The notes under the pieces were generated by a model, which was not told the origin of the DNA, searched no databases, and saw only the letters and a program-made list of their open reading frames with translations. The position numbers and the translations under genes were made by a program. A DNA stretch of 64,000 nt. It comes from an uncultured virus (IMG/VR IMGVR_UViG_3300010163_001408) (taxonomy: Duplodnaviria > Heunggongvirae > Uroviricota > Caudoviricetes). Positions 6,472-27,354 of the stretch are shown here, one piece after another. The stretch lies in IMG/VR virus record IMGVR_UViG_3300010163_001408; one strand, written 5' to 3'. Numbering within the stretch: the first letter of the stretch is position 1; every line of letters begins with the position of its first letter.

Positions 6472-7558
6472 AAATAAAATGTTACATGCAAAAATGCATA
6501 ATAATCAAATAAAGAAAAAATTAGATTTAAAGGAACTTGGTTATATTATGACAGAGTTAACATGCATTAGTAAAAATAGAAATAACTTTGGTGTATATGG
6601 TAAATACATATTAAAAGATGCAAATGATAATATTATAAAAAAGTCAACAGTGGAACTGATAGATGCAATAAGAAATGGAGAAATAAATGTTGATAATTTG
6701 GAATTAACATCTAAAGGCACATTGAGAAATAAAAAGGATAAATTAAAAATAAAAGATGCAATAATTTTATTTGAGTATATAAAAGATAGAATAATATATG
6801 AGACACATAAGACAGTAGTATTCAAAGATAATACCAATATAGATTTACTAGAACAAAAAGCAAGAGCACTTTATGATAATATATACATTGATAAAATTGA
6901 TGAAGAATTAATTATAATTAAAACATTCGAGAAAATAATAGTAGCAACGCCCAAAAGCAAGTTTGTTATGCTAGATGCAGTTAACTTTTTTAAATGGTCC
7001 ACTTTAAGAGAAATAAACCTAATGAATGTAGATACATCATATTTAATAGATATGGGCTTTATGTTCTATTGTGCTAAAGCAAGTAAAATAAATATAAATA
7101 ATATAAATACTAGCAAAGTAGCATATATGGATCATATGTTTTTTGGATGTAATTTAATTGAGTTAACAATAGGAAATATTGATACAAGTAAAGTAACTGA
7201 TGCAAGTGAAATGTTTGCAGAAAGCAGCATGAACAAGTTAGATCTTAGCAGACTTAACCTAAATAACATTATTATAACAACTAGAATGTTTGAGCATACA
7301 AGAATTAAAGAAATAGACATATCAAATTTTGATCTAACACATACATATTACAATCAATATATGTTTAGAAATTGTAACATAGATATACTAAAAATAGGTA
7401 ACATTGAGATTGATAGTAATTTAATTGATAATTTTAAGATATTCCATAAAGCAAAAATAGGAACACTAATAATCAAAAGTGCACAGGAAGAAACCATACA
7501 ATACCTAAAGCAAAAATTGGGAAGTGATACAACAATAGTATGCAAGCACCAAAAGTAA
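6452..7558 (+). CDS. BspA/DUF285-like leucine-rich repeat protein
   Basis: Repeats of the type NxDTSKVxxMxxMF. Confidence 0.75.
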   Translation: MKRQTIKNKMLHAKMHNNQIKKKLDLKELGYIMTELTCISKNRNNFGVYGKYILKDANDNIIKKSTVELIDAIRNGEINVDNLELTSKGTLRNKKDKLKIKDAIILFEYIKDRIIYETHKTVVFKDNTNIDLLEQKARALYDNIYIDKIDEELIIIKTFEKIIVATPKSKFVMLDAVNFFKWSTLREINLMNVDTSYLIDMGFMFYCAKASKININNINTSKVAYMDHMFFGCNLIELTIGNIDTSKVTDASEMFAESSMNKLDLSRLNLNNIIITTRMFEHTRIKEIDISNFDLTHTYYNQYMFRNCNIDILKIGNIEIDSNLIDNFKIFHKAKIGTLIIKSAQEETIQYLKQKLGSDTTIVCKHQK

Positions 7559-7571
7559 TAAGGTATAGGAG

Positions 7572-8432
7572 ATGTTAAAGATGGAAAGAATAGATGATAG
7601 GGTAATAATAGATCAAGAAACTATAAGCAATATAGCATGTAAGAAACACCTGACATTTAAGAGTAATAAAGACTTTAAAATTATGGAAAATAAAGCAGCT
7701 GTATTAGGTGGAGATACAAGATTTGATTTAATATCACCTGATTTAGGTGCATTAAAAATGAATGATAATATTATATTAATGACAAATAAGAGCAGGATAG
7801 AAGTTTATGATGGATATGATTTATTTAATACTCCACGTATGCATAGTTTTAGTTCAATAAACTTAACTGGATTAGATACTAGCAATATGAAATGTGCAAT
7901 TGAAATGTTTAGTAACATAAAAAATGAAATAATAGGATTGAATAATTTGGATACACATAATGTAGAATGTATGAGAGGAATGTTTTCTAGCATTAAAAGT
8001 GATAAAATAAATTTATCAAACTTTGATGTGTCCAAAGTTATGGATATGCGTTATATGTTTATAAGGTCAACTATAACTGAATTAGACATAAGCAATTTTA
8101 ATATAAATACTTCATCAAAACTAAATTTCATGTTTTATAAAGCACAGATAGGCACTTTAAAGTTGTTTGATATAAAATTGCATATGAATATATCAGATTT
8201 ATTTTCATATACAAACATAGAAACTTTAATATTGAATAAAATAGATATAGAAGAAGACCAAGAGAACTTAAAAGCAGTCCTTGAGGGTGCAAATATAGGT
8301 AAAATAGTCCTACTAGACACAAGTCAGAAAACATTAGAGGGCTTGTACAAAATGTTAATGTCACCTATAAGAGAGGACGGAATAATGCAGACTATTGGTA
8401 ATTTAGATGAAATACTACAACTATATGATTAA
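7572..8432 (+). CDS. BspA/DUF285-like LRR protein (paralogue)
   Basis: LDTSNMK..MF, LDTHNV..M..MF, FDVSKV.DM..MF repeats. Confidence 0.75.
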   Translation: MLKMERIDDRVIIDQETISNIACKKHLTFKSNKDFKIMENKAAVLGGDTRFDLISPDLGALKMNDNIILMTNKSRIEVYDGYDLFNTPRMHSFSSINLTGLDTSNMKCAIEMFSNIKNEIIGLNNLDTHNVECMRGMFSSIKSDKINLSNFDVSKVMDMRYMFIRSTITELDISNFNINTSSKLNFMFYKAQIGTLKLFDIKLHMNISDLFSYTNIETLILNKIDIEEDQENLKAVLEGANIGKIVLLDTSQKTLEGLYKMLMSPIREDGIMQTIGNLDEILQLYD

Positions 8433-8446
8433 AGGGAGACTAAGAA

Positions 8447-9303
8447 ATGGAAAGTAAGGCAGTAATAGACCGTAATATTATAAAAAGTATATTATGCAAA
8501 AAGTATTTAACATTTAAAACAAATGTTGATTTTGATATAATGGCAAATAAAGCACATGCATTAGGTAATGGAATCGAGTTTAAAATCATAAGAGATGACA
8601 TAGGTACATTAGAAATAAATGATAAAATCATTTTAATGACAAACAAAGAAAAATTAATAGCATATGGAAAAGCATTATTTATTAATTGCAGCTCTAAAAA
8701 CTTTTTTTTAAATCTATAGACCTAACTAATTTGGATACTAGTGAAATGACTAGTGCAAATAACATGTTCGGATTTAATACTTACAACATAAATGAAACAA
8801 TGAACATAGATAAATTAGACACACATAATGTAGTAGATATGGAAAAAATGTTTCAATATACAAAATATGATAAGCTAAGTTTATTAGAATTTAATACAAG
8901 CAAGGTCACTAATATGAATGACATGTTCTTTGCATCAAAAATACGAGAACTAGATATTAGTAAATTTAATATAAATAGTATACAAACATTAAAGAATATG
9001 TTTTTTATTTCAACTATAGATACTTTGAAATTATTTGATATACCGTCAGGAATAAATGTTTCAAATATGTTGGCATATTCAAATATAGATAAGCTAATAT
9101 TAGGTAAGATGAACATAGGTCATGATAATCAAGAATTAAAAAGTGTATTTGCAGGAGCAAATATAAACAAAATAATACTAACAGATAAAAGCAAAGATAC
9201 AATAGGTAGTTTACATAAGATGCTAGAATCGACTATAAGAGAAATGGAAGACAAACCAATAATAGGTAATTTTAGCCAAATATCAACACTATGTGGCATT
9301 TAG
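8447..9303 (+). pseudogene. BspA/DUF285-like LRR paralogue frameshifted at a T8 tract
   Basis: ORFs 8447-8719 and 8731-9303 align to the N- and C-parts of 7572-8432; T9 instead of T8 at 8702-8709 restores FKSIDLTNLDTS (cf. FSSINLTGLDTS). Confidence 0.8.
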
Positions 9304-9321: not shown

Positions 9322-10452
9322 ATGAAAGATAAGTATGCAGACATATCTAATTATTACAAGCAAGCACATTTTAATAAACTGGTAAACTACAGAAATAGTA
9401 TAAGAAAAAATCCAGAACTGAAAACACTATTCATAGAAATGACAATAACATGTAACCAGCATTGCAGACATTGTGGAAGTCGATGTGGTGACATTAAGGA
9501 AAAATCGGGGTTGACAGATAATGAAATTTTTGAATGTTTAAAAGAACTTTCTGTAGACATTGCAAGAGATAACAGACCTTTACCATTCTTAGCCATAACA
9601 GGTGGTGAGCCTTTATTAAGAAAGACATTACCAGATTTAATGAAGAAAATACATGATGACCTAGGATATAAATGGGGAATGACAAGTAATGGGCTATTAG
9701 CAACACCTGAAATGTGTCATAGACTAAAAGAAGCTGGCATGTATTCAATAGGGATTAGCCTGGATGGATTAGAAGAAACACATGATTGGTTTAGACAGTC
9801 AAAGGGAAGTTACCAGAAAACACTAGAAAACATTAAGAATTTAGTAAATGAGGGCTTTGGAAATGTAATGGTAACTACAGTAGTTCACAAAAGGAACATA
9901 GGAGAACTTGACAAAATTAAAGAAGTAGTCAAGGGATTAAAAGTGGACACATGGAGAATAATGGGAGTAGACCCTATAGGCAGAACACTGGAAAACAAGG
10001 ATATAATGTTGGACAATAACAGTGACTACAAATACATTATAGATTATATAGTAAACATGAGGGAAAATGACAAAGATATAGATGTAATATATGGATGCAA
10101 TTATTATTTAGGTTTAGACTATGAAAGAAAGGTGAGGCCATGGTATTACTTATGTGGTGCTGGCATAAAGGTAGCAAGCATACAATATAACGGAGACATA
10201 AGTGCTTGCCTAGATATACAAAGAGATGAAAGATTGACCTTTGGAAACATAAGAAAAGATAACCTTTATGACATTTGGAAAAATAAGTTTGAAATATTCA
10301 GAACAGAAAAATCACTAACAAGCAGTAAATGCAAAGATTGTAAAGACAGACTAAATTGTGATGGTAATGGTTGGCATACATGGGATTTTGATAGCAACGA
10401 GCCTAAAATATGTATGAAAGAATTAATAGACTTAAGGGGTGATAACATATGA
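9322..10452 (+). CDS. Radical SAM/SPASM peptide- or protein-modifying enzyme
   Basis: CNQHCRHC (CxxxCxxC), ITGGEPLLR, WGMTSNG, SLDG; SPASM Cys in CGAG...GDISAC...CKDC...C. Confidence 0.9.
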   Translation: MKDKYADISNYYKQAHFNKLVNYRNSIRKNPELKTLFIEMTITCNQHCRHCGSRCGDIKEKSGLTDNEIFECLKELSVDIARDNRPLPFLAITGGEPLLRKTLPDLMKKIHDDLGYKWGMTSNGLLATPEMCHRLKEAGMYSIGISLDGLEETHDWFRQSKGSYQKTLENIKNLVNEGFGNVMVTTVVHKRNIGELDKIKEVVKGLKVDTWRIMGVDPIGRTLENKDIMLDNNSDYKYIIDYIVNMRENDKDIDVIYGCNYYLGLDYERKVRPWYYLCGAGIKVASIQYNGDISACLDIQRDERLTFGNIRKDNLYDIWKNKFEIFRTEKSLTSSKCKDCKDRLNCDGNGWHTWDFDSNEPKICMKELIDLRGDNI

Positions 10453-11134: not shown

Positions 11135-11176
11135 CAGTGACTTAAATATTAGATACACATGCAGGAGTTAATAATC

Positions 11177-11842
11177 ATGGACAAGACACTTAGTGAACTA
11201 TGTAAACAAAATAACATAGAGTATATTAAAGCTATAAAATATAAAAGAAAACATCCAGAATTAACATATGAACAAGTTATTAATTATTATTTAACACATA
11301 ATTTAAATAAAGATTCATTCATGAAACTGTGCAAACAATATGGAATAAAATATGGTACTGCCAATGCTTACAAACAGCATCATCCGGAATTAAGTAACGA
11401 GGAAATAATTAAACATTATATTACACAAAAGAAACCAAAAGAAGAAACATTTAGTAATATGTGCAGGAAACATGGAGTAAATATAGCAACAGCATTTAGT
11501 TATAAGAATTTACATCCTGAATTAAGTAATGAACAAATAATAAATCATTATTTAACATCAAAAACTAATGAATTAAAAGAATTGAGTAAAAAATATAACA
11601 TAGAGTATAAGAGATTACGTGTATACAGAAGTGAGCATCCAAACTTAAGTAATAAAGAAATAATAAATCATTTTTTAGCAAAACAAGAATACCTTAGTAA
11701 GTTATGTGAACAATATGGAATAAAATATAATACTGCCAATGCTTACAAACAGCATCATCCGAAATTAAGTAATGAGGAAATAATTAAACATTATATACCA
11801 AATAGTTTCATCAACAGTCAGGGAGAATTGATTGTACTATAA
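11177..11842 (+). CDS. Tandem HTH-like repeat protein (5 repeats plus cap)
   Basis: LC..Y.I.Y.....YK..HPEL...II..Y repeats; ends IPNSFINSQGELIVL; start chosen from RBS GGAG at 11164. Confidence 0.8.
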   Translation: MDKTLSELCKQNNIEYIKAIKYKRKHPELTYEQVINYYLTHNLNKDSFMKLCKQYGIKYGTANAYKQHHPELSNEEIIKHYITQKKPKEETFSNMCRKHGVNIATAFSYKNLHPELSNEQIINHYLTSKTNELKELSKKYNIEYKRLRVYRSEHPNLSNKEIINHFLAKQEYLSKLCEQYGIKYNTANAYKQHHPKLSNEEIIKHYIPNSFINSQGELIVL

Positions 11843-12373: not shown

Positions 12374-12426
12374 CATTTTATATCAAACAGTTTTATCAAT
12401 AGTCAAGGAGAATTAATATCATATGA
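12374..12426 (+). repeat. Orphan copy of the repeat-family C-terminal cap sequence
   Basis: CATTTTATATCAAACAGTTTTATCAATAGTCAAGGAGAATTAATATCATATGA with no upstream repeat gene; supplies the RBS for ATG 12423. Confidence 0.8.
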
Positions 12427-13235
12427 CATTAAAAGATTTATGCAAGCAGCATAATTTAAAATGGCCTACAGTATATGCATATAAAAATTCACACCCTGAA
12501 TTAACTGATGAACAAATTATAAATTATTATTTATATCCAAAACCACTTACAATTAAAGAATTATGTATGCAACAAGGAATTAAATATGAAAACTTTTTTC
12601 ATTATAGAAGAATGCATAAGGAATTATCATCATTAACAATTAATGAAATAATAGAACACTACTTAGCATCTAAGAAAGTTACATTTAAAGGTTTGTGTGA
12701 TAAAAATGGTATAAATTATAAGCTTGCATCATCATTTAAATTCAAGCATAAAGAATTAACTAATGAACAAATAATTCAATATTATATAAATAAGAGATCA
12801 ACAAAAACAATATTGGATTTGTGTAAAGAAAATAACATAGAACCAAACAAAGTATACGTATTTAAAAGATTACACATTAATGAAGAATTATCTAATGAAC
12901 AATTATTAAACAGTTATATGCAGCATGCTGAAAATAGGTATAAATCAAAACAATTTTTAGATTTATGCAGAAATAATAATATAGATACTAATTCAGCATC
13001 ACAATATAAAAGAAAGCATCCTGAACTGTCAGAGGAACAAGTAATAGAATATTTTTTATTAAAAAATTTAAGCCCACAGAAAATGTTAAGTAATATGTGT
13101 AAAAAGTATAAATTACGTTATAGTACAGTAAGGAAATACAAGGAGAGGCATAACAGTTTAAGTAATGAACAAGCTATTCAGCATTTTATACCAAATAGTT
13201 TCATCAATAGTCAAGGAGAATTAATAGTTATATAA
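12423..13235 (+). CDS. Tandem HTH-like repeat protein (6 repeats plus cap)
   Basis: Same repeat; ends IPNSFINSQGELIVI. Confidence 0.85.
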   Translation: MTLKDLCKQHNLKWPTVYAYKNSHPELTDEQIINYYLYPKPLTIKELCMQQGIKYENFFHYRRMHKELSSLTINEIIEHYLASKKVTFKGLCDKNGINYKLASSFKFKHKELTNEQIIQYYINKRSTKTILDLCKENNIEPNKVYVFKRLHINEELSNEQLLNSYMQHAENRYKSKQFLDLCRNNNIDTNSASQYKRKHPELSEEQVIEYFLLKNLSPQKMLSNMCKKYKLRYSTVRKYKERHNSLSNEQAIQHFIPNSFINSQGELIVI

Positions 13236-15104: not shown

Positions 15105-15126
15105 TCAGGTGACATCAGGTGACATA

Positions 15127-15972
15127 ATGAATAATAATAATTATACACACTCACAAAAAGACAACATACAGAAAGAACTAATAGAAAAATTATATAAGAT
15201 GTATGCAATCAAAAATAGAAGTGATTACACTGGAAGTATATTAAAATGTGAGTGTATAATTAATAATGAAAGAGGTATATTTAAGGAACGCTATAGTATG
15301 AGAAGCAAAGACCATATAATGGAACAAATAGTCTTTGAACTATCACAACTATTAGGAGTAAATTGTTGCAAAGCATCATGCAGAAAAGTGAATGACATAT
15401 ATGGATCATTTTCAAGATTTGAGGTTGCAGACATAAATAATGTAGTACCATTAAGTGAATATTTGAATGCATCAGAATTACATGCAGATGACTTATTAGA
15501 AACAATAATAAACAAATCAAGAGGAATCATAAATAATATAGTAGTTAATTTATATCAATATATAATATTTGACTACATTACAGGACAACATGATAGGCAT
15601 TTAGAAAACATATCCATATATAAAAATATGAATAATAGAACAATAGTAATGTATCCATTATATGATAACGGTTTATGTTGTTTTTCAATATATAACAATG
15701 AAGATGCTATAGAGAGGTTACAAAAACGTTTTTATCCATCAAGAATGGGTTCAAGTGATGAAATAATGGATGCAATAATAAAGTACAGACACATTATTTA
15801 TCCAGACAATTTAATTAACATAATTCAGTACAACAATGTAAATAAAGATATAATCATGAATATAATAAATAGGTCAGATAAATATAAACAAATGAAACCA
15901 GATAGAAAAGAAGCAATAGCAGAGTTTATATTAAGTCAAATCAAAGATATACATAATATAAATAGGGGATAA
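15127..15972 (+). CDS. HipA/CtkA-like protein kinase
   Basis: FDYITGQHDRHLENI catalytic loop and YPLYDNG; ATG 15127 preferred over GTG 15109. Confidence 0.75.
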   Translation: MNNNNYTHSQKDNIQKELIEKLYKMYAIKNRSDYTGSILKCECIINNERGIFKERYSMRSKDHIMEQIVFELSQLLGVNCCKASCRKVNDIYGSFSRFEVADINNVVPLSEYLNASELHADDLLETIINKSRGIINNIVVNLYQYIIFDYITGQHDRHLENISIYKNMNNRTIVMYPLYDNGLCCFSIYNNEDAIERLQKRFYPSRMGSSDEIMDAIIKYRHIIYPDNLINIIQYNNVNKDIIMNIINRSDKYKQMKPDRKEAIAEFILSQIKDIHNINRG

Positions 15973-16579: not shown

Positions 16580-17119
16580 ATGACATTTAAAGATATGTGC
16601 GAACAAAATGGAATAAGTTATAATACAGCATATCTGTATAGAAAAAGGCATCCAGAATTAACTAACAAACAAGTGATATAACATTACTTAGCACCAAAAC
16701 AAATAGCATTAGCAGCATTATGCAGACAATATAATATAAATTATGGATTAGCAATTAATTATAAATGCAGGCATCCAGAATTAACTAATGAGGGCATAAT
16801 TAAGTATTATATAATTAAGTGTGATTTAAAGCCTAAATCACAATCATTAAAGAGTTTATGCACACAATACAATATAAATTATAATAGAATATACCAGTGT
16901 AAGCAAAGGCATCCAGAGTTAAGTAATGAAGCATTAATACAGTATTGCTTAAGATCAAAAATAAAAACACTTAGTGAATTATGTAAACAATACAAAATAA
17001 AGTACAAGACAGCGAATAATTATAAACAATATCATAAAAATTTATCTAATGAGCAAGTAATTCAATATTTTATACCTAACAGTTTTATTAATAGTCAAGG
17101 AAAATTAATTATAATATAG
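16580..17119 (+). pseudogene. HTH-like repeat gene (4 repeats plus cap) with a premature stop
   Basis: MTFKDMCEQNGISY...QVI*HYL...IPNSFINSQGKLIII; in-frame TAA at 16679-16681; absent from the ORF track. Confidence 0.85.
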
Positions 17120-17131
17120 GAGGAAAAAGAG

Positions 17132-17674
17132 ATGATAGTCTACCATGGAAGTAATAGTAACTTTAAGAAACTAAGAATAGCAAAGGAATTAGTTAAACAT
17201 GAATCATCACAACTCAATGAGGGCTTAGGAATTTACTTTTCAACAAATAAGAAAGTGGCAGAAAGCTATGGAAAGTATTTATATACACTTGAGATTAATA
17301 ATAAATACTTTGTAGATTTTAGAAATAAGTCTAAGTGTCAAGCATATATCAGAGGGATAGTATTAGAAATACAACAAAAAACAGACATAGACATACTTAG
17401 ATATATAAACTTAGATACTCTATTGTATTATATACACAGTGGGAATGTAGCAATCAGTGGTACTTGCAGAGAAATTTACTTAATATTAGATTCAGACGAA
17501 TATTTTTATAGCTTGCCTAAGATAAAAATAGATAGAGTATTTCAGATACTCAGGACATATGATAGCAAACACCTATATGCATACATGTTTAACTATCACA
17601 TAAAAGACATAGGCGTAATAAAGAAAGTAACTGATGATATAGTAAAAATAGTAAACAAGGAAATAGTAGGATAA
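17132..17674 (+). CDS. ADP-ribosyltransferase-fold protein (putative)
   Basis: VYHGS...GLGIYFSTN...AESYG, the H-G-S / G-x-Y-F pattern of PARP/ART-like domains. Confidence 0.55.
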   Translation: MIVYHGSNSNFKKLRIAKELVKHESSQLNEGLGIYFSTNKKVAESYGKYLYTLEINNKYFVDFRNKSKCQAYIRGIVLEIQQKTDIDILRYINLDTLLYYIHSGNVAISGTCREIYLILDSDEYFYSLPKIKIDRVFQILRTYDSKHLYAYMFNYHIKDIGVIKKVTDDIVKIVNKEIVG

Positions 17675-17678
17675 CCAT

Positions 17679-18364
17679 ATGAGTGCTGATATGCATAAAG
17701 AATCATATATAGAAAACCTTTTTATAAATAGTCAATTATCACTATAATCTAAAATAGACACTATAAATAAGATAGATATTTGTAAAATAAATAATATAGC
17801 AGGCGTAGATTTAGACTACTGGAAAGAAAATGGAACAGAATATGCAGTATGTTGCATAGTAGTAATAAACAAAAATAACCAAGTTATTGAAAAAACATAT
17901 TATAAATCAATAATAACAATACCCTATATTCCAGGATGCTTAGCATTCAGGGAGATTCCACTTGTATTAGAAGCAGTAAAACAGCTTAAAAATAACATAG
18001 ACTTATTTATATTTGATGGTAACGGGTACTTACATCCAAGACATATGGGTTTAGCTACACATGCTGGTATATTACTAAATAAACCAAGCATAGGTGTAGC
18101 TAAAACCTATTTTAAGATTATATAGAGCCTGAAAACACGGCATTTGCATATACCAATATAATTATTAATAATTTAATTTATGGCAGAGTAATTAGGACTC
18201 ATAAAGACGTGAAGCCAATATTTTTATCAGTGGGGCATCAGATAGATACAGAAACAGCAACAGAAATAATAAAAACTTTAGTAAATAAAGATAGCCATAT
18301 TCCAATACCAACTCGTTTAGTAGATATAATGACACATGAAAAGCGAAAGGAATTACAGAAATAA
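17679..18364 (+). pseudogene. nfi: Endonuclease V (deoxyinosine 3' endonuclease) pseudogene
   Basis: IAGVDL, PYIPGCLAFRE, FDGNGYLHPRHMGLATH, SIGVAK, then in another frame PIFLSVGH...IPIPTRLVD; TAA at codon 23 and a frameshift near 18115. Confidence 0.9.
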
Positions 18365-18366
18365 TT

Positions 18367-19836
18367 ATGGTAGAATCATTCAAGCAGATGTGCGAACAAA
18401 ATGGAATAAATTATAACACAGCATTAAAATATAGAAAGAAGCATACAGAATTATCAGATAATCAAGTAATTGATCACTATTTAGCATTACAAATAGTTAA
18501 AAAAGAAGAGTCATTTAGCTCATTATGTAAAAAATACAATATTAATTATAGTGCCGCTAGATATTACAAAAGGAAACATCCAGAATTAAGTAATCAAGAA
18601 ATAATTGATCACTATTTAGCATTGCAAACAGTTAAAAAAGAAGAGACACTTAAGTCATTATGTAAACAACATAATATAAATTATTCTACATTTATTAATT
18701 ATAAACGTAGCCATCCAGAATTAAGTAATCAACAAGTAATTGATCATTATTTAGCACCAAAAGAAGAATCGCTTTGGTCCTTATGTAAACGATACAATAC
18801 TAATCATTATGCTGCCTATTATTATAAAAGGAAATATCCAGAATTAAGTAATCAACAAATAATTAATCACTATTTAGCATTACAAACAGTTAAAAAAGAA
18901 GGATCACTTATGTCATTATGCAAACAATACAATATTAATTATGACATGGCATATAGTTATAAATGTAGGCATCCAAAATTAAGTAATCAAGAAATAATTA
19001 ATCACTATTTAGCATTGCAAACAGTTAAAAAAGAAGAGACACTTAAGTCATTATGTAAACAACATAATATAAATTATAATATAGCAAAAAAATATAAGAA
19101 TAGACATACAGAATTAAATGATCAAGAAGTAATTAATCACTATTTAGCATTACAAACAATTAAAAAAGAAGAGTCATTTAGCTCATTATGTAAGAAATAC
19201 AATATTAACTATGGTAATGCATGGAGTTATAAAAAGAGACATCTAGAACTAAATGATCAGGAAATAATCAATCACTATTTAGTATTACAAAAAGAAGGGG
19301 CACTTAAATCATTATGTAGACAATACGATATAAACTACATTACAGTTCTCCATTATAAAAATAAACACCCAGAATTAAGTGATCAGGAAATAATAAAATA
19401 TTACTCAACAAAACGTTACTCAGCAAAACAAGAGTCTACATTTAGAAGTTTATGTAGGCAATATAACCTTAATTATGGTACAACAATATCATACAGAAAT
19501 AAACATCCAGAACTAAGTGATCAACAAGTAATTGACTATTATTTAGTACCAAAAGAAGAATCACTTCTGTCATTATGCAAACAATACAATGTTAATTATA
19601 GTACTGCACGTTTGTATAAAAATAACCATTTAGAATTAAGCAATCAACAAGTAATTGATTATTATTTAGTACCAAAAGAAGAATCACTTATGTCATTATG
19701 CAAACAATACAATATTAAGTATAGTACTGCAAATTGGTATAAAAATAATCATTCAGAATTAAGTAACAAACAAGTTATTCAACATTTTATACCAAACAGT
19801 TTCATTAATAGTCAAGGAGAACTAATAGTAATATGA
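18367..19836 (+). CDS. Tandem HTH-like repeat protein (11 repeats plus cap)
   Basis: Eleven 41-46 aa units with near-identical scaffolds; ends IPNSFINSQGELIVI. Confidence 0.9.
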   Translation: MVESFKQMCEQNGINYNTALKYRKKHTELSDNQVIDHYLALQIVKKEESFSSLCKKYNINYSAARYYKRKHPELSNQEIIDHYLALQTVKKEETLKSLCKQHNINYSTFINYKRSHPELSNQQVIDHYLAPKEESLWSLCKRYNTNHYAAYYYKRKYPELSNQQIINHYLALQTVKKEGSLMSLCKQYNINYDMAYSYKCRHPKLSNQEIINHYLALQTVKKEETLKSLCKQHNINYNIAKKYKNRHTELNDQEVINHYLALQTIKKEESFSSLCKKYNINYGNAWSYKKRHLELNDQEIINHYLVLQKEGALKSLCRQYDINYITVLHYKNKHPELSDQEIIKYYSTKRYSAKQESTFRSLCRQYNLNYGTTISYRNKHPELSDQQVIDYYLVPKEESLLSLCKQYNVNYSTARLYKNNHLELSNQQVIDYYLVPKEESLMSLCKQYNIKYSTANWYKNNHSELSNKQVIQHFIPNSFINSQGELIVI

Positions 19837-20354
19837 CATTTAAAGATTTATGCATCCAAAATAATATTAATTATAAGACTGCTGATAATTACAGACGGAG
19901 TCATCCAGAATTAAGTGATCAAGAGATAATAAAATATTACTTAGAAAAACAAGGACCTACATTTAGAGGCTTGTGTAAACAAAATAACATAAGATATAGT
20001 ACAGCAATAGCATATAGAAATAACCATCCAGAACTAAGTGATCAACAAGTAATTGATTACTATTTAACACCAAAAGAATCACTTCGATCATTGTGTAAAC
20101 AATACAATGTAAATTACAAAAATGCTTGTTACTATAAGGGTAGACACCCAAAATTAAGTTACCAACAAATAATTGACCATTATTTAGTACCAAAAGAAGA
20201 ATCACTCATGTCATTATGCAAACAATACAATATTAATTATAATAATGCACATGAGTATAAAAGGAATCATACTAATTTAAAAAATATACAAATAATACAA
20301 TATTATATACCAAACAGTTTCATCAATAGTCAAGGAGAATTAATAATAGTTTAG
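19833..20354 (+). CDS. HTH-like repeat protein (4 repeats plus cap)
   Basis: ATGA overlap with the upstream paralogue; same repeat. Confidence 0.85.
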   Translation: MTFKDLCIQNNINYKTADNYRRSHPELSDQEIIKYYLEKQGPTFRGLCKQNNIRYSTAIAYRNNHPELSDQQVIDYYLTPKESLRSLCKQYNVNYKNACYYKGRHPKLSYQQIIDHYLVPKEESLMSLCKQYNINYNNAHEYKRNHTNLKNIQIIQYYIPNSFINSQGELIIV

Positions 20355-20369
20355 GAGGATAACCAGAGA

Positions 20370-20894
20370 ATGGAAGTCAAAAAGAATAAATCCTTTAAAG
20401 AAATATGCAAACAGCATTCAGTAAGCTATGCATCAGCATTACATTATAGAAAAAGACATCCAGAATTATCAGATAATCAAGTAATTGATCATTTTTTAAA
20501 TAAAACAAACACATATTTTACAGAATTGTGCAAACAAAATAATATATCATACTCAGCAGCTTATGCTTATAAGCGTAGGCACCCAAAAGTAAGCAACAAG
20601 AATATAATGAATAAATTTTTAGACCCTGCAAGAATGCTTACAAGATTATGCAAGCAGCATAATATACCATATAAAATGGTTTATAATTATGGATACAGAC
20701 ATCCAGAATTATCAAATGAGCAATTAATAGAATACTTTAAGCATAATCAGTACCCTAGGATTCCATTTAAAACATTATGCAAACAAAACAATGTAAATTA
20801 TACAAATGCATATGCTTATAAACGAAATCATCCTGAATTAACAGATGAACAAATAATTAAAAGATATATAGATAAGAGAGAACAGGAGCATTAA
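20370..20894 (+). CDS. HTH-like repeat protein (4 repeats, no cap)
   Basis: Same repeat; RBS AGGAGG. Confidence 0.85.
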   Translation: MEVKKNKSFKEICKQHSVSYASALHYRKRHPELSDNQVIDHFLNKTNTYFTELCKQNNISYSAAYAYKRRHPKVSNKNIMNKFLDPARMLTRLCKQHNIPYKMVYNYGYRHPELSNEQLIEYFKHNQYPRIPFKTLCKQNNVNYTNAYAYKRNHPELTDEQIIKRYIDKREQEH

Positions 20895-20899
20895 GAGAA

Positions 20900-21082
20900 G
20901 TGACTTTAAAAGAATCATCCAAGCAACAATCACTAAGAAGCTTTTGCAAGCAGCATAATATAAGTTATGCAACACTAATAGGTTATAAGCACAAACATCT
21001 AGATTTAGAGTATATGCAAATCATTCAGCATTATATACCAAACAGTTTCATCAATAATCAAGGAGAATTAATAGTAGTTTAG
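20900..21082 (+). CDS. Single-repeat member plus cap
   Basis: SLRSFCKQHNISY...IPNSFINNQGELIVV; GTG start. Confidence 0.65.
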   Translation: MTLKESSKQQSLRSFCKQHNISYATLIGYKHKHLDLEYMQIIQHYIPNSFINNQGELIVV

Positions 21083-21096
21083 GAGGATAAACTAAG

Positions 21097-21633
21097 ATGA
21101 CCAATAAACACAATAAGACATTTAAAGAAATATGTGAACAACATAATATTAACTATATTACAGCATTACAGCATAGAAGAAAGCATACAGAGTTAACAGA
21201 TGATCAAATAATTGAGTATTATATAATCAAACAAAATGGTGATTATACATTCAAAGATAAATGTAAAAAACATGGGATAGACTACATGAGTGCATGTAAA
21301 TTTTTAAGTAGGCACCCAGAATTAACTAAAGAACAAGTAATAGAACACTATATAGACAAACAAAATAAATATGACACATTTAAGAATTTATGTAAAAACA
21401 ATAACATAACTTTTAAAATTGCAAGAGTATATAAGAGAAGGCATCCAGAATTAACAGATGAACAAATAATTGAGTACTATACAACAAAGTTATCAACAGA
21501 AACAATGCATAGTTTATGTAAGAGATATGGTATAGAAACAACAAAAGTCTATAGATATAGACAGAGACATCCCGAATTAACAGATGAACAAATATTTAAA
21601 AAATACTTAGGTCAACAAAAACATAAGGAGTAA
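21097..21633 (+). CDS. HTH-like repeat protein (4 repeats, no cap)
   Basis: Same repeat; start and RBS region resemble those of 20370. Confidence 0.85.
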   Translation: MTNKHNKTFKEICEQHNINYITALQHRRKHTELTDDQIIEYYIIKQNGDYTFKDKCKKHGIDYMSACKFLSRHPELTKEQVIEHYIDKQNKYDTFKNLCKNNNITFKIARVYKRRHPELTDEQIIEYYTTKLSTETMHSLCKRYGIETTKVYRYRQRHPELTDEQIFKKYLGQQKHKE

Positions 21634-21637
21634 AATT

Positions 21638-22117
21638 ATGAGTCAATCATTCAAGGATTTATGTAAAAAGCATAATATCAAATATCCAGTAGCTTATGAA
21701 TATAAACTAAAACATCCTGAATTAACAGAAGAGCAAGTGATATATTATTACACAACATTAAAGCCGAAAAGTTTAACAAACTTATGTAGAAAATACAATG
21801 TAAAATATTATATAGCATATAAATATAAAAGAAAGCATAAGGATTTAAGTAATCGGGAAGTAATAGAACACATTTTAACAAAACCATTAACTTTAAAAAA
21901 ATTATGCATAGACAATAATACTAATTATAATACAGCAAATTCATATAAAAGAAAGCATCCAGAATTAACTAATGAACAAATAATACAGTTTTATAAAAAT
22001 TATAATACAAGAGATAAGCATAATTTTGCAAACTTGTGTAGAAAATATAATCTGGTTTACTCATCAGCATACGGCTATAGACAAAGACACCCAGATTTAA
22101 CAAATGAACAAATATAG
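21638..22117 (+). CDS. HTH-like repeat protein (4 repeats), last repeat clipped
   Basis: Ends EQI*; removing 2 nt from ATATAG gives EQIVQYYKK*, the normal repeat end. Confidence 0.8.
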   Translation: MSQSFKDLCKKHNIKYPVAYEYKLKHPELTEEQVIYYYTTLKPKSLTNLCRKYNVKYYIAYKYKRKHKDLSNREVIEHILTKPLTLKKLCIDNNTNYNTANSYKRKHPELTNEQIIQFYKNYNTRDKHNFANLCRKYNLVYSSAYGYRQRHPDLTNEQI

Positions 22118-22159: not shown

Positions 22160-22657
22160 ATGACAAAAGAATTAGAATATTTAAAAGATAAAATAGTACT
22201 ATTCGATGTAGATGGTACATTAATGAGATATGACTTTGGAGCAATAGGAAAATGTTTTACAACTGATGAATGGATTCATCTAAGCACAATATGTAACATA
22301 TATACAGAAAAGGGTCATCCAACATCAATATTTAATGACATTATAAGAGAATTAGGAAACAATGCATGGGTAATAACAGTTTCATTAACATTACATGAGC
22401 AAAGAAACAAAATAGCATTAATTAAGAAAATACATCCAACAATTCCAGAAAATCACATTCTTTTTGTAGGTGACACAAAATATAAAGTACCATACATAGA
22501 AAGTCTAATAGCAAGTCAACAAATATATGAAAATAGCAAAGAACACAAGAAAGTAGTATTAGTGGATGATAAAGATGACTTATTGTTTATGCATCAAGCA
22601 GCATATGGTGATTTAGCACCATCCTTTGAAATAAGATTAGTTTCAGACTTTATTTAA
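22160..22657 (+). CDS. HAD-superfamily hydrolase
   Basis: LFDVDGTL motif I; VLVDD motif IV. Confidence 0.75.
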   Translation: MTKELEYLKDKIVLFDVDGTLMRYDFGAIGKCFTTDEWIHLSTICNIYTEKGHPTSIFNDIIRELGNNAWVITVSLTLHEQRNKIALIKKIHPTIPENHILFVGDTKYKVPYIESLIASQQIYENSKEHKKVVLVDDKDDLLFMHQAAYGDLAPSFEIRLVSDFI

Positions 22658-22682: not shown

Positions 22683-23102
22683 ATGGAAGAATCAAATAAT
22701 TTAGCTGAATTATGTAGACAACATAACATAAATTATAATGCAGCAATAAAATATAAAAATAGGCATCCAGAACTAAGTAACAAAGAAATAGTAAATCGTT
22801 ATTTAACAATCGAATCACAGTCATTTCGAAATTTTTGTGAACAACACAATTTAAATTATACAACAGCTTTGGATTTTAAACATAGACACCCAGAATTAAG
22901 CAATCAACAAATACAAATAGTAGAACACTACTTAACGCTGAAATCACAGTCATTTAAAAGTCTTTGTAAACAATTCAATATAAACTATGTTAAAGCACTA
23001 GCTTTTAAACATAGACACTTAGAATTAAACAATCAACAAATAATTCAGTACTATATACCAAACAGTTTTATCAATAGTCAAGGAGAACTAATAGTAGTAT
23101 GA
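22683..23102 (+). CDS. HTH-like repeat protein (3 repeats plus cap)
   Basis: Same repeat and cap. Confidence 0.85.
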   Translation: MEESNNLAELCRQHNINYNAAIKYKNRHPELSNKEIVNRYLTIESQSFRNFCEQHNLNYTTALDFKHRHPELSNQQIQIVEHYLTLKSQSFKSLCKQFNINYVKALAFKHRHLELNNQQIIQYYIPNSFINSQGELIVV

Positions 23103-24346
23103 AACATAAACAACTCAAAGAGTTATGCAAGCAATATAATATAAATTATCATACAGCATATAATTATAAGCAAAGACATCCAGACATAACTGATGATGAG
23201 GTAATTGAGCATTACATATTACCAGATAAGAAACCCTTAGTAAAATTATGTGAACAATATGATATAAATTATCGTACAGCATATAATTATAAACAACATC
23301 ATCCCCAATTAACTAATATGGAGGTGGTTAATTATTACAGGTTTAAACCAAAAGAAGTACCATTAACAGAATTGTGTAAACAATACAATATAAAATATAC
23401 AATGGCTAAACATTATAAATCCAGTCATCCTGAATTAACTAATGAAGAAGTTATTAAGCACTATTTAGAGGAAGGGGAGGAATTTAAGAATCTATGTAAA
23501 CAGTACAACATAGATTATGCTACAGCAGTAGCATATAAACAAAGTCATCCAAGTTTAAACAATAAGCAAGTAATGAGATTTTTCTTAAACCAGCCATTAA
23601 CATTTAAAGAAATGTGTGACATGAATAATATAGATTATCATGCAGTAGCTGCTTACAAAAGCAGACATAAAGATTTAACAGATGAACAAGTAATTCAGCA
23701 CTACTTAGCACCAAAACCTAAGTCTCTTAGAAGTATATGCATGGAGAATAATTTAAGTTTCACATCAGTTAGAAGTTTTAAGACACATCATCCAGAATTA
23801 GATAATGAAGAATTAGTACAACTATACATAGAATTAAATGAGCAAGCAGTAAAAGAAGATAAGCAACTATCAAATGGGAGGACAATACTGGAAAATAACA
23901 ATAATACAGAATCACTCAGGAGTTTATGTATAAAACATGATGTAAATTACACATCAGCTAAAAATTATAAATATACACATCCTAATTTAACTAATAAAGA
24001 AATTATAGATATATGTATTAAATTAAAAGAAGAGGGATCAAAAGATGAAACACTTAGAAAACTATGTGAAGATAATGGTTTAAACTATTCATCAGTAAGA
24101 AGTTTTAAGTACCATCATCCAGATTTAACAAATAAAGAAGTAATAGACATATGTATTAAATTAAAGGCAAAAAGATCAAAAGAGGAGTCATTTAAAAATT
24201 TATGCATAAAACTTAAACTAAATTATTCATCAGTAAGAAGTTTTAAGTACCATTATCATCCAGAATTAACAGACATACAAGTAATTCAACATTTTATACC
24301 AAGCAGTTTTATTAATATTCAAGGAGAGTTAATCATATTAGAATAA
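23099..24346 (+). CDS. HTH-like repeat protein (9 repeats plus variant cap)
   Basis: ATGA overlap; ends IPSSFINIQGELIILE. Confidence 0.85.
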   Translation: MKHKQLKELCKQYNINYHTAYNYKQRHPDITDDEVIEHYILPDKKPLVKLCEQYDINYRTAYNYKQHHPQLTNMEVVNYYRFKPKEVPLTELCKQYNIKYTMAKHYKSSHPELTNEEVIKHYLEEGEEFKNLCKQYNIDYATAVAYKQSHPSLNNKQVMRFFLNQPLTFKEMCDMNNIDYHAVAAYKSRHKDLTDEQVIQHYLAPKPKSLRSICMENNLSFTSVRSFKTHHPELDNEELVQLYIELNEQAVKEDKQLSNGRTILENNNNTESLRSLCIKHDVNYTSAKNYKYTHPNLTNKEIIDICIKLKEEGSKDETLRKLCEDNGLNYSSVRSFKYHHPDLTNKEVIDICIKLKAKRSKEESFKNLCIKLKLNYSSVRSFKYHYHPELTDIQVIQHFIPSSFINIQGELIILE

Positions 24347-24356
24347 GAGGATAAGC

Positions 24357-25034
24357 ATGAGTAAATTTAAAAACCTAAGGCAATTATGTGAGCAACATAA
24401 TTTAAATTGTAGCACAGTTAGAGCATATATTTACAAACATCCAGAATTAACAATTGATCAAATAATTCAATATTACATATCAAAACCAAAGGAAACTTTG
24501 AGAGAATTATGTAGAAAACATAATATAAATTATAATAGAGCAACAGGATTAAGAAAGAGAAATAAGAGATTAACTAATCAAGAAATAATAGATTATTGCA
24601 TATTTAAAGATAAATCTAAGGCTGAGGAATCATTAGCAGAACTCTGTAGGAAACATAATATAAACTATCATAATGCAAATTCTTATAAACAAAGACATCC
24701 AAAATTAACTAATAAACAAGTAATAAATTATTATATTGAACCTAAAGAAAAGCAGTTGTCCTTCAGAGATTTATGTAAAAAGCATAACATAAATGAAGCA
24801 AATGCATATGCATATAGAAGTAGTCACCCAGGACTAACAGATGAACAAGTAATAGAATTTTATCTGAAACCAAAACAATTAACAGTAACTGAACTGTGTA
24901 AACAATATAATATAAATTATACATCTCTATATCATTATAGACAAAAGAATCCAAGTTTATCATTGTCACAAGCAATGCAGCATTTCATACCCAATAGTTT
25001 TATCAATAGCCAAGGAGAAATAGTAATAATATAG
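24357..25034 (+). CDS. HTH-like repeat protein (5 repeats plus cap)
   Basis: Ends IPNSFINSQGEIVII. Confidence 0.85.
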   Translation: MSKFKNLRQLCEQHNLNCSTVRAYIYKHPELTIDQIIQYYISKPKETLRELCRKHNINYNRATGLRKRNKRLTNQEIIDYCIFKDKSKAEESLAELCRKHNINYHNANSYKQRHPKLTNKQVINYYIEPKEKQLSFRDLCKKHNINEANAYAYRSSHPGLTDEQVIEFYLKPKQLTVTELCKQYNINYTSLYHYRQKNPSLSLSQAMQHFIPNSFINSQGEIVII

Positions 25035-25104
25035 CATGTAACCAAGCTTTTAGATATTTAATAATAATTAAATTTTTATTTTTGTGAGAGGAGAACCAGA
25101 ACAC

Positions 25105-27354
25105 ATGAGTCAGAACGATAAGCTTTTAAGAGCAAAAGGATTGCCTGTTTTAACAAAAGGGGAAAAAGACAAGCTAAGAAATAAGTGGCAGGCAGAGACA
25201 TGGGATGACATGTTAATGTCATTACACTTATATGGAAAATATATAATGCTCAGACCAACTGGTTTTGGTAAGACATATACATGTTCATGTGCTACTTCTA
25301 TTGGTTCCAGTACACCAGAGGGTAGTGATGAAATAATACTTAACAATGGTTCAGTAATACACAATCAAAAACTTGTGAACATTCACAAAAAGAAGGTTGT
25401 ATTTGTTTATGTGTCTGATATTCTTAAAAGGACATTCAGTAGTGAAATAGCAGCTATAAAAAATTCAGACAGAATAATATACGAAACATATTCCATGATA
25501 CGGGGTCATTGGGGAGACACTGACTACCTTAAAGAGGTAATAGATATAGATAATGTAGGGCTTGTAATATTTGATGAAGTACAGAGACTTGGTGCAGTTA
25601 AAACATCTCAGACATTTGATATAGCAACTCCTATATTAAATGAACTTGGAGTGTATTATATAGGTGCAACAGCAACAGTAGGTAGGTCAACTGGACATGA
25701 TGTTTGTGACAAGTATTTTACAGTAGGTTCACCTAATATAGCAATCAACAGTAAAGAAGTAAAAGCCAGAGGTGCTAAGCAGAAACTCAATAACCTAACT
25801 TATTGTTGGGGAGAACATATATACACTCTTTCTGATGCATTTAAGAGTGGTTTACTTATTCCACCTGAATATCAATACATTGAGGAAAATGATCAGATTC
25901 TCAAAGAAGCAAGACACTCAAGAAAATCATTGCTTAAGAACTTAAAGACAGACTACGTAAACTGCACTAATCCTGAAGAAAAGCATGCTATATTTGATAG
26001 CATGCAGGAGTTGGACAGAGCAATTATTAAAAACTCTAGCAAAATTATACACGATACAATGTTGCAACTGTATGACTGCAATCCAAAATTTGTAGTAGAG
26101 AGGGAAGATTTACCTCCTGCAAAGTTCGGTAGCTTACCATTCCCTAAAAGATTACCTAAATACATGAGATTTCTTGTGTTTGCACCTGATAGGGAATCTA
26201 TTGTAGCAAATACAAAAGATATAACTACAGGAGATATTTATGGAAGCCTACTTGAAAGAACACGTGATGACTTCGTAGAAGCATTTGGACGTTATGGTTA
26301 TAAAGTAAGAACACTGGTAATTTCATCATTAACATCAGAAGAAAGAAACAATGTAAAGTTACTGGATGCTAAAAACGTATCAGAAGATGATATTGAAAGT
26401 GAGAAGGTAATCAAGCCAACTGATATGACAATTGATTTGATCTTCAGTATCAACATGTTAAATGTAGGATACCATGTGTCACATATAACTGGATTGGTAT
26501 TTAAACGCTGGACAGGAAGTAATCAGGTATACTACCAGCAGCTAGGCAGATGTTTATCAGTTGACTCTGATATTATACCTGTAGTATTTGATTATGTAAA
26601 CAGCATAAGTAGTAAGGGTATCAATGCTCCATTATACTCAATTGAAAGTTCAACTAAGACTACAACAGAGAATGCTGATGGTACAAAGACTATAGAGTAT
26701 AAGGAAAAACCGAAGCAGGAGAGAACACCTGGGGATATCAATATCATTGATGCAAAATATATTACAGTAGGCATGACCAGTGCAACTGTAAAGGATATAC
26801 TTGAAAGAGTTAATGTATACCAAATGAGATTAAATAGTATATCCTTATTTAAAGATAGTTACAACAGTTATATGGATTGTATTAATATTGATGCGGCTAA
26901 TAACAGACTTATAAGCAATGTAAAAAATATACCTTCATTAACAGACTCCATGAGAGTGCATGTAATCAAGAAGTGCAGGGCAGAAGGACATGATATAACT
27001 AAACTGGATTTTAGTAAGATAAGCATGAACTTTAAGGAGTATCTGCTTTGGTTAAAGAACAATAACAAAGATGTTTATGCGAATTATGAAGCATTTAAGC
27101 AATATAAACAGTGTAAAGAGTTAGGTACAACTCCCACAACTTTGGCTGCAGAGGTAAATTCAGTATTGGCTGTGAGCAAAACACTAGCAGCAACTGAAAA
27201 GAAAGCTAAGACAGTATCAACAAATGGGGTAAACATCAAGTTAATGATCAATGCAAACCAAATAGAGGAGTTTAAGCAGGATAAGGAAACACAAGATTTA
27301 CTGTTAAGTAAGGGATTCTCACCATCAAAAGATATAGTAACATATACGGAATAA
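25105..27354 (+). CDS. Superfamily 2 helicase/ATPase
   Basis: RPTGFGKT (I), FDEVQ (II), GATAT (III), MLNVGY (V), QQLGRCL (VI); ATG 25105 follows RBS GAGGAG. Confidence 0.85.
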   Translation: MSQNDKLLRAKGLPVLTKGEKDKLRNKWQAETWDDMLMSLHLYGKYIMLRPTGFGKTYTCSCATSIGSSTPEGSDEIILNNGSVIHNQKLVNIHKKKVVFVYVSDILKRTFSSEIAAIKNSDRIIYETYSMIRGHWGDTDYLKEVIDIDNVGLVIFDEVQRLGAVKTSQTFDIATPILNELGVYYIGATATVGRSTGHDVCDKYFTVGSPNIAINSKEVKARGAKQKLNNLTYCWGEHIYTLSDAFKSGLLIPPEYQYIEENDQILKEARHSRKSLLKNLKTDYVNCTNPEEKHAIFDSMQELDRAIIKNSSKIIHDTMLQLYDCNPKFVVEREDLPPAKFGSLPFPKRLPKYMRFLVFAPDRESIVANTKDITTGDIYGSLLERTRDDFVEAFGRYGYKVRTLVISSLTSEERNNVKLLDAKNVSEDDIESEKVIKPTDMTIDLIFSINMLNVGYHVSHITGLVFKRWTGSNQVYYQQLGRCLSVDSDIIPVVFDYVNSISSKGINAPLYSIESSTKTTTENADGTKTIEYKEKPKQERTPGDINIIDAKYITVGMTSATVKDILERVNVYQMRLNSISLFKDSYNSYMDCINIDAANNRLISNVKNIPSLTDSMRVHVIKKCRAEGHDITKLDFSKISMNFKEYLLWLKNNNKDVYANYEAFKQYKQCKELGTTPTTLAAEVNSVLAVSKTLAATEKKAKTVSTNGVNIKLMINANQIEEFKQDKETQDLLLSKGFSPSKDIVTYTE

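Follow-up and report, generated by a model that had tools for sequence, protein, structure and literature searches.

The DNA analysed here is a stretch of 64,000 nucleotides (64 kb) from the uncultured Caudoviricetes record IMGVR_UViG_3300010163_001408, and the subject of this analysis is a repeat gene at positions 18367-19836 on its + strand. The product of 489 residues comprises 11 three-helix units, each 41-46 residues long, and a C-terminal tail. The units are numbered from a near-invariant single Cys residue (position 0), and their core extends from -5 to +30. A short helix at the Cys residue is followed by a turn, Tyr at +7, five residues, Tyr at +13, Lys or Arg, and two mostly basic residues. 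The second part of the unit is formed by a His-Pro-Glu-Leu-Ser/Thr segment and a final helix with a His/Tyr-Tyr-Leu end. In unit 4, His instead of Tyr is the aromatic residue that precedes the five-residue window (+8 to +12). The windows of units 1 to 11 read NTALK, SAARY, STFIN, YAAYY, DMAYS, NIAKK, GNAWS, ITVLH, GTTIS, STARL and STANW; translation of the gene exactly reproduces the 11 sequences given by the initial annotation, a note made from the sequence alone. The features of the gene are as follows.

18367-19836, + strand: repeat gene, 489 residues, 11 three-helix units and C-terminal tail
18415-19737, + strand: span of all 11 five-codon variable windows, from translation and per-site entropy
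18415-18429, 18550-18564, 18685-18699, 18808-18822, 18943-18957 and 19078-19092, + strand: five-residue windows of units 1-6
19213-19227, 19339-19353, 19477-19491, 19600-19614 and 19723-19737, + strand: five-residue windows of units 7-11
18584-18684, + strand: tract of 101 nt, near-identical (1 mismatch) to 18977-19077, from helix 3 of unit 2/5 to the turn of unit 3/6
19789-19833, + strand: C-terminal tail IPNSFINSQGELIVI, a predicted β-hairpin, from sequence conservation and structure prediction

A hidden Markov model (HMM) of the unit identifies 60 units (E ≤ 1.4e-6) in the six-frame translation of the stretch, in line with the roughly 60 repeats estimated initially. These units reside in 12 open reading frames (ORFs) of the + strand that lie between 11.1 and 25.0 kb, and the remaining 35 rows of the search have E ≥ 0.13. 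Entropy was calculated for each site over the nine genes at 18.3-25.0 kb, which provide 44 gap-free units. The values within the window are 3.40 bits (+8), 2.68 bits (+9), 1.23 bits (+10), 3.16 bits (+11) and 3.37 bits (+12). The next most variable position is +15 (3.06 bits), followed by +27, -3, +23 and -2 (2.5-2.6 bits, with a maximum of 2.64). Position +10, the third of the window, belongs to the conserved core residues; it is Ala in 8 of the 11 units of the 18367-19836 gene and Ala or Val in 40 of the 44 units of the nine genes. Both the prevalence of Ala at this third position and the greater variation of the first, fourth and fifth positions had been claimed initially, and both hold.

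The windows form islands of divergence within near-identical DNA, beyond chance. Units 3 and 6, which had been described as identical over long stretches of DNA, differ at only 1 of 101 bases in the tract 18584-18684 (partner 18977-19077). This tract stops exactly at the first window codon, and 9 of the 15 window bases then mismatch. Compared with their flanks, the windows are enriched in mismatches between units 3 and 6 (9/15 vs 11/132, Fisher P=8e-6), units 2 and 5 (12/15 vs 16/132, P=7e-8) and units 2 and 7 (9/15 vs 15/132, P=5e-5). No such enrichment was observed between units 10 and 11 (3/15 vs 15/132, P=0.4). The scaffold is thus homogenised, and the differences concentrate at a small number of helix positions; this describes the behaviour of the arrays and is not evidence of membership in a family.

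The structure of the units was predicted with AlphaFold2 (AF2). The model of the four-unit paralog encoded at 19833-20354, which was based on 25 aligned sequences, has a predicted local distance difference test score (pLDDT) of 96.1 and a predicted template modelling score (pTM) of 0.59. In this model, each unit consists of helix 1 (7 residues), a turn of 4 residues, helix 2 (10 residues, +7 to +16), a loop of 5 residues and helix 3 (9-11 residues). For the 11-unit protein, AF2 predicts 33 helices and, at the C-terminus, a hairpin (pLDDT 84.7, pTM 0.24); confidence is lowest in the linkers (pLDDT 57-68). The units are predicted confidently and their mutual arrangement is not; the model has the look of beads on a string and shows no regular solenoid. 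Because the variable residues are interspersed with the conserved Y+7, A+10, Y+13, K+14 and H+17 in an alternating manner, they would occupy the exposed face of helix 2. The initial annotation had placed the window on the exposed face of a recognition helix. Mapping of the sites on the model agrees with the exposed face of helix 2, where exposure is judged from periodicity, and the recognition role is only suggestive. That role is based on a helix-turn-helix (HTH)-like sequence and turn pattern and on sub-threshold HTH matches (4 of 60 units at E ≤ 0.01), and the structure searches do not discriminate.

The absence of a predicted solenoid bears on the type of recognition that can be proposed. 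TALE, PUF and PPR proteins likewise consist of tandem helical repeats of similar length that vary at fixed positions. A single-base reader of this kind, acting on RNA or on single- or double-stranded DNA, would devote one unit to each nucleotide and use the five-residue window as its code. Such a reader would be consistent with helical repeats of about 36-45 residues, with specificity-type variation at fixed positions of one helix and with the abundance of Tyr at +11, which could stack on bases. However, 59 of the 60 five-residue windows are distinct, and 58 distinct +8/+11/+12 triplets occur among the 60 units; thus, no small recurring alphabet of the TALE, PUF or PPR type is present. The units appear to be independent three-helix bundles, and no confident packing between them is predicted at the pTM and linker pLDDT given above, although a regular arrangement adopted only on a ligand would escape such a prediction. 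No match to these readers was found in sequence or structure, and the only solenoid relatives retrieved by Foldseek are designed toroids (E ≥ 0.035). A single-base reader is very improbable on this evidence. The programmable array envisaged initially, in which each repeat reads a different short sequence, is not supported: the nearly complete distinctness of the windows, the low pTM with no solenoid and the behaviour of 17 relatives, in which the window is not uniquely variable (see below), all speak against a code of one unit for one motif.

The pattern of the unit resembles that of HTH domains. Two helices with a tight turn were found in the AF2 models, and a small residue in helix 1, a Gly/Asn turn and hydrophobic core positions in 276 near-complete units from 149 family proteins. 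Among these units, position 0 is Cys in 270, +4 is Gly or Asn in 228, +5 is Ile, Val or Leu in 267, +10 is Ala or Val in 233 and +13 is Tyr or Phe in 238. The pattern further includes Thr or Ser early in helix 2, an aromatic residue and then basic residues. We take these positions to correspond to positions 5, 9, 10, 15 and 18 of the canonical 20-residue HTH; on the same numbering, the variable sites would presumably be 13, 14, 16, 17 and 20, which are the positions usually facing DNA. Whole-protein profile searches match HTH_Tnp_1, HTH_psq, HTH_28, the N-terminal HTH of phrog_51, phrog_147 and the HTHs of IS481, IS3 and IS66. Except for a few obviously partial ones, all of the profile matches are to HTH families, and their alignments cover exactly the helix-turn-helix stretch, although the whole-protein scores (45.9 bits for HTH_psq and 46.2 bits for HTH_Tnp_1) pass the cut-offs only by summing partial matches. 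The Cys residue at position 0 is conserved family-wide even though helix packing would be satisfied by Ala or another small residue. Each unit holds one near-invariant Cys (0) and one His (+17), in contrast to the pair of each that serves as zinc ligands in C2H2 fingers. A metal site shared by the two residues inside the unit was considered and set aside, as the helix register would make it geometrically unlikely.

Charge and domain partners also point to nucleic acid. All 12 repeat proteins are basic (pI 8.3-9.6), and Lys, Arg or His residues are conserved at +14 to +17, accounting for 54% of the residues at +15/+16. Homolog P0066 is an SF2 helicase (ResIII and Helicase_C) with five units, each preceded by a short β-hairpin-like motif. 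Homologs P0088 and P0104 each combine two units with a domain similar to the C-terminal domain of the RNA polymerase α subunit (α-CTD), which scores above its cut-off. In the stretch itself, a helicase-like gene adjoins the repeat cluster, which is surrounded by genes of DNA metabolism (RNase H, RecJ-like, exonuclease and deaminase).

25084-27354, + strand: SF2-helicase-like gene, 756 residues, with Walker A-, DExx-, TAT- and QxxGR-like motifs in its translation

The product of this gene has a weak BLASTP match to the helicase part of P0066 (E=4e-4) and a weak PADLOC match, and no Pfam match at 1e-5. From its position and likeness, it is a possible partner of the repeat proteins.

The C-terminal tail is the most conserved part of the family. 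It is present in 9 of the 12 paralogs of the stretch and, under a strict pattern, in at least 64 of 151 retrieved relatives. Its Asn residue is invariant, and the Pro, Gly and Glu residues are nearly so. In the AF2 model of the 19833-20354 product, the tail forms a two-stranded hairpin. Among homologs P0009, P0028, P0033, P0106, P0108, P0110 and P0118, some carry a Cys-rich, zinc-ribbon-like C-terminal segment that replaces the tail, and some carry repeated β-rich modules with weak similarity to T4 gp30.7.

The rates of change distinguish the four exposed window sites (+8, +9, +11 and +12) from the rest of the unit. The ratio of nonsynonymous to synonymous substitution rates (dN/dS) over all pairs of units is uninformative because synonymous sites are saturated (proportion of synonymous differences, pS, 0.60). 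In 44 nearest-neighbour pairs from 54 gap-free units, the proportion of nonsynonymous differences (pN) is 0.62 at the four sites, against a pS of 0.44, and 0.20 in the rest of the unit, against a pS of 0.48. The near-equal frequency of synonymous differences inside and outside the windows speaks against diversification of the windows by targeted mutagenesis, such as that of a diversity-generating retroelement, for which the sharp localisation of the differences is the sole favourable point. In addition, Pfam detects no reverse transcriptase among the 62 scanned ORFs and ORF pieces of the stretch, and the variable codons are distributed across 12 genes, in 60 separate five-codon windows, instead of being confined to one variable region. 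The probability of such a mechanism is practically negligible.

Each of the four sites keeps its own residue preference, which indicates constraint and argues against plain drift. Polar or small residues are preferred at +8, and Thr accounts for 39% at +9. Position +11 is 26% Tyr, 15% Arg and 13% Ile, and +12 is occupied mainly by Ala, Ser, Asn or Lys. The share of acidic residues at +8/+11/+12 is 2%, compared with 8% expected from base composition and approximately 15-28% on the exposed sides of helices 1 and 3.

The best reading of these features, which stands at about an even chance, is that the genes encode basic poly-HTH nucleic-acid-binding arrays that evolve like zinc-finger arrays. Each protein would be a string of independent three-helix mini-domains of approximately 36 residues, located 41-46 residues apart. 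The HTH would be composed of helix 1, the four-residue turn and helix 2, with helix 3 packing behind. The binding surface would be formed by the exposed +8, +9, +11 and +12 residues of helix 2 and backed by the mostly basic +15/+16 residues. The bound nucleic acid would probably be double-stranded DNA, and each unit would make a few contacts with it through helix 2; for binding through helix 2 as such, we consider the evidence to be evenly balanced. The arrays may grow and homogenise by unit duplication and gene conversion, while the codons of the helix-2 contact residues would be spared from homogenisation and evolve at the neutral rate or faster, a behaviour known from C2H2 zinc-finger arrays. 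The β-hairpin tail of most paralogs may serve as a common capping, docking or oligomerisation element.

The closest evolutionary parallel is provided by the C2H2 zinc-finger arrays of PRDM9 and KRAB-ZNF proteins. These are also long tandem arrays of mini-domains that present one helix per unit, with a scaffold that is homogenised at the DNA level and a few fixed helix positions that evolve fastest. In PMC3890296, the array of PRDM9 is called a 'coding minisatellite' that shows positive selection at its DNA-recognition positions. The phage units differ in that they lack Cys2His2, consist of three helices instead of a β-β-α fold and measure 41-46 residues instead of approximately 28; moreover, their DNA binding is putative.

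Several results qualify or weigh against a poly-HTH array with zinc-finger-like evolution, and the first group concerns rates. In a SLAC-like count of nonsynonymous (N) and synonymous (S) changes on a FastTree tree of 54 units with Fitch ancestors, the four sites accumulate N 181 and S 27, which corresponds to omega 1.74 (binomial P=0.003 for N excess), and ten other exposed positions have omega 0.45, but this count is based on parsimony and ignores recombination among units. In 27 independent pairs obtained by greedy matching, the ratio at the four sites is 1.13-1.44 and not significantly greater than 1 (P 0.15-0.44), and pN/pS is 0.38-0.42 at other exposed sites. In these pairs, pN is 0.41-0.56 at the window sites vs 0.17-0.26 at the other exposed sites. 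The per-site comparison across the repeats proposed initially therefore gives pN/pS of 1.1-1.7 at the window sites and approximately 0.4 at other exposed sites. The diversifying selection suggested at the outset is only suggestive: the sites change faster than other exposed sites, and omega exceeds 1 in the tree count, but the excess is not significant in the independent pairs. What can safely be stated is that the four sites change about three times as fast as other surface sites, at a rate equal to or somewhat higher than neutral.

The second group of results concerns the wider family. Over the 276 near-complete units, +8, +11 and +12 still have the highest entropy (3.59-3.75 bits), and other exposed positions are close behind (3.0-3.4 bits). 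In 17 other family proteins with at least four units, which are more diverged, the window is not uniquely variable: the mismatch is 0.91 at +15, 0.88 at +8, 0.85 at -2, 0.84 at +11 and +12, and 0.83 at +1. The claim that the window varies more than other surface positions thus applies to this stretch, as judged by entropy, but not within the diverged relatives. The sharp contrast in this stretch is attributed to young, partly homogenised arrays in which the fastest sites diverged first.

The same data have to be set against a plainer explanation, in which the repeat proteins are generic coating or architectural proteins that bind nucleic acid independently of sequence, or fillers, and the window is simply their least constrained patch, with conversion homogenising only the flanks. 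The window pN/pS that cannot be distinguished from 1 in the independent pairs, the equal saturation of every exposed position in older arrays and the decayed appearance of several paralogs (in-frame stop, truncation and orphan tail) all fit this explanation. It accounts less readily for the significant N excess in the tree count, for four sites with distinct, non-random preferences that avoid acids, and for purifying selection at the other exposed sites (omega approximately 0.4). Three conversion tracts also end at or flank the window. Taken together, we consider this explanation unlikely.

The third group of results comes from database searches. Searches of single units against Pfam give no match at the gathering cut-off; the 4 of 60 units noted above match HTH_psq (best E 0.0036), and no other family is matched. 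For the first member of the repeat family, the single-unit HTH_psq score is 16.3 bits, compared with a cut-off of 20.4. The whole-protein scores are unreliable because they sum partial matches, and the highest of them, 68.7 bits, belongs to the unrelated LysM. Foldseek returns 0 matches at E ≤ 1e-3 against the PDB and BFVD. The weak top rows of BFVD are mostly HTH proteins and HNH, GIY-YIG, LAGLIDADG or NUMOD1 endonucleases, all at E ≥ 0.085, and serve only as a lead. Sequence searches of the PDB with the unit profile and with a profile of the last unit and tail retrieve only chance rows (E ≥ 0.17). In an exhaustive VIA search, the best rows (Z 4.2-3.1) are RuvA domain III (4.2), UBA/CUE domains and Protein A repeats; the HTH proteins (CvkR, sigma and TFIIB; Z 2.7-3.1) are mixed with UBA and Protein A. 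These Z-scores are at the noise level for small helical bundles.

The structural rows raise the alternative of protein-binding three-helix modules, namely strings of the Protein A or UBA type whose variable helix-2 face binds host or phage proteins, for example in anti-defence or host takeover. The best rows are RuvA domain III, UBA/CUE and Protein A constructs, and the models do resemble beads on a string. The Tyr, Ile, Leu and Trp residues that are frequent at +11 would also suit a protein interface, which counts against nucleic-acid contact. Furthermore, candidate counter-defence or host-takeover genes lie nearby (an ADP-ribosyltransferase-like ORF and a HipA-like kinase), and multi-copy families with fast-evolving surface residues are typical of arms-race proteins. 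Against this stand the basic character of all 12 proteins, the conserved Lys, Arg and His residues at +14 to +17 with acids depleted on the variable face, the HTH identity of the sequence pattern and of every informative profile match, and the fusion of homologs to a helicase and to an α-CTD-like domain. The Z-scores are also far too low for assignment to UBA or Protein A. Although Protein A, UBA and RuvA domain III share a compact three-helix unit of approximately 35-45 residues, and Protein A is a string of five, the repeat proteins are basic, follow an HTH-like pattern and have no sequence relation to them. Protein binding is therefore somewhat unlikely, and nucleic-acid-binding poly-HTH arrays are retained as the preferred reading.

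Within this reading, the units can be compared with known HTH proteins. The transposase- and homeodomain-like HTHs (HTH_Tnp_1, HTH_psq, HTH_28 and HTH_23) and Myb/SANT repeats share the helix-turn-helix with a small residue in helix 1, and Myb proteins contain two or three tandem HTH repeats. Unlike in these families, the HTH is formed here by the first two helices and the third follows, single units fall below every family threshold, and up to 11 units per protein are combined with an HPEL[ST][DN][EQ]Q loop and a C-terminal hairpin tail. The NUMOD1 modules of phage homing endonucleases of the I-TevI and I-HmuI type are also small, linker-joined HTH modules in phage proteins; NUMOD1 is, however, not among the Pfam families matched at E ≤ 1 by nine repeat proteins. 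Likewise, no nuclease family was detected in the nine by PHROGs or in four of the repeat proteins by NCBIfam and PADLOC.

Carried further, the poly-HTH arrays could be a zinc-independent phage counterpart of zinc-finger arrays. Units of approximately 42 residues would read short DNA words via four helix-2 residues, and arrays of 1-11 units would be reshuffled by duplication and conversion to give composable specificity. The paralogs would dock via their tail on a common partner, such as the neighbouring SF2 helicase, and direct it to many sites in host or phage genomes. This extended version is quite unlikely. If the units are modular DNA readers, they would provide a compact, metal-free scaffold for engineered DNA recognition, as well as a rare case in a prokaryotic virus of the regime of vertebrate zinc fingers, in which concerted evolution of the scaffold is combined with rapid turnover of contact residues. 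A more cautious reading also has consequences: the family is undescribed, it occupies approximately 8 kb of one large phage genome, and this share, together with the conserved tail, points to an important step of the infection cycle in large metagenomic phages.

The other members of the twelve-gene cluster were identified by the unit HMM and are arranged as follows, together with an orphan tail remnant.

11159-11842, + strand: paralog, 5 units and tail
12374-12424, + strand: orphan tail remnant HFISNSFINSQGELISY with no units attached (repeat family D11), between the RNase H gene and the next repeat gene
12423-13235, + strand: paralog, 6 units and tail
16583-17116, + strand: paralog, 4 units and tail, with an in-frame TAA at 16679-16681 (helix 3 of unit 1)
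19833-20354, + strand: paralog, 4 units and tail, modelled by AF2; its start overlaps the stop of the 18367-19836 gene
20370-20894, + strand: paralog, 4 units, without tail
20900-21082, + strand: paralog, 1 unit and tail, 60 residues, 5 nt past the preceding stop and in a different frame
21097-21633, + strand: paralog, 4 units, without tail
21638-22117, + strand: paralog, 4 units, ending within helix 3 of the last unit, just ahead of an unrelated HAD-like gene
22683-23102, + strand: paralog, 3 units and tail
23099-24346, + strand: paralog, 9 units and tail
24357-25034, + strand: paralog, 5 units and tail

Some of these loci appear damaged or rearranged. Apart from its in-frame TAA, the 16583-17116 paralog is intact, and the 33-residue piece ahead of the TAA corresponds to predicted protein P0100 in a public collection. 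The 21638-22117 paralog is truncated beside the inserted HAD-like gene, and the orphan tail at 12374-12424 suggests a former repeat gene that was replaced or overwritten. The in-frame stop, the truncation and the orphan tail together fit a gene family with rapid turnover. The HAD-phosphatase-like gene that breaks the run of repeat genes is located at 22160-22657 (NCBIfam HAD-IIIC, E 0.003, under the cut-off).

The family is rare and previously unannotated, it has no name in any library searched, and it would represent an undescribed form of HTH-type repeat architecture. Among 1.84 billion representative proteins, the unit profile retrieves 308 at E ≤ 1e-3, 119 at E ≤ 1e-10 and 36 at E ≤ 1e-30, with up to 11 units per protein. 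All eight homologs that were looked up are unnamed singleton clusters from Logan or ENA raw assemblies. Two repeat proteins of this stretch are absent from the protein collection, and a similarity search with the product of gene 24357-25034 gives one match only. No match to the repeat genes was found in GenBank phages (megablast and tblastn) or PLSDB plasmids (tblastn), and none in IMG/VR viral contigs with gene 19833-20354 or P0014. Searches of JGI metagenome contigs with gene 19833-20354 and with a back-translated tail pattern, and of GTDB genome contigs with the tail pattern, were equally without match. The back-translated loop motif retrieves two loci in IMG/VR contigs, both of which are unrelated aminotransferase-like ORFs that share the short motif only and were rejected. 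The nearest clusters in the ESM Atlas are multi-HTH proteins of Bacteroidota, with scores of 0.80-0.84 that are under the level counting as more than a lead. A literature search yields no paper on this repeat family; the text of PMC5472282, a TALE-inspired repeat screen, contains none of the five HTH or phage terms looked for.

In all likelihood, the stretch as a whole comes from a large phage that is known from metagenomes only. It is AT-rich (GC 25-36%), and all of its long ORFs lie on one strand. Among its products are ParA-like and actin-like partition proteins, a RecJ-like exonuclease, a 5´-3´ exonuclease, a dCMP deaminase, an RNase H and a radical SAM enzyme. Scans with Rfam and for tRNAs found nothing in the 64 kb. 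Three paralogous 'Hef-like' homing/HNH endonucleases are encoded on the + strand at 36614-38263, 39812-41431 and 42507-44480 (phrog_3339 and phrog_559, E down to 1.6e-91). They contain tandem Cys-rich N-terminal modules of approximately 55-60 residues (repeat families D13 and D16), and by tblastn, 444 phage records, many from large or jumbo phages, contain relatives of them.

Several neighbours of the repeat genes deserve separate description. An endonuclease V gene lies directly upstream of 18367-19836 on the + strand and is split into overlapping frames at 17748-18125 and 18116-18364, which match positions 16-126 (E 2.6e-40) and 131-197 (E 3.3e-14) of Pfam Endonuclease_5. It is either a frameshifted pseudogene or a gene that requires a frameshift to be read. 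Within the repeat cluster, the 180-residue ORF at 17132-17674 (+ strand) has sub-threshold matches to ART-PolyVal (E 5e-6) and the AcrIF11 ADP-ribosyltransferase (E 6.6e-4), and on this likeness it may possibly be a counter-defence enzyme. The HipA-like kinase domain protein is encoded at 15109-15972 on the + strand (Pfam HipA_C, E 3.8e-7, just under the cut-off; PADLOC PDC-M03A, E 1.5e-14). Further upstream, three consecutive ORFs with DUF285 repeats, which are leucine-rich-like repeats of the Mycoplasma type, occupy 6452-9303 on the + strand and are followed by a radical SAM/SPASM enzyme at 9322-10452.

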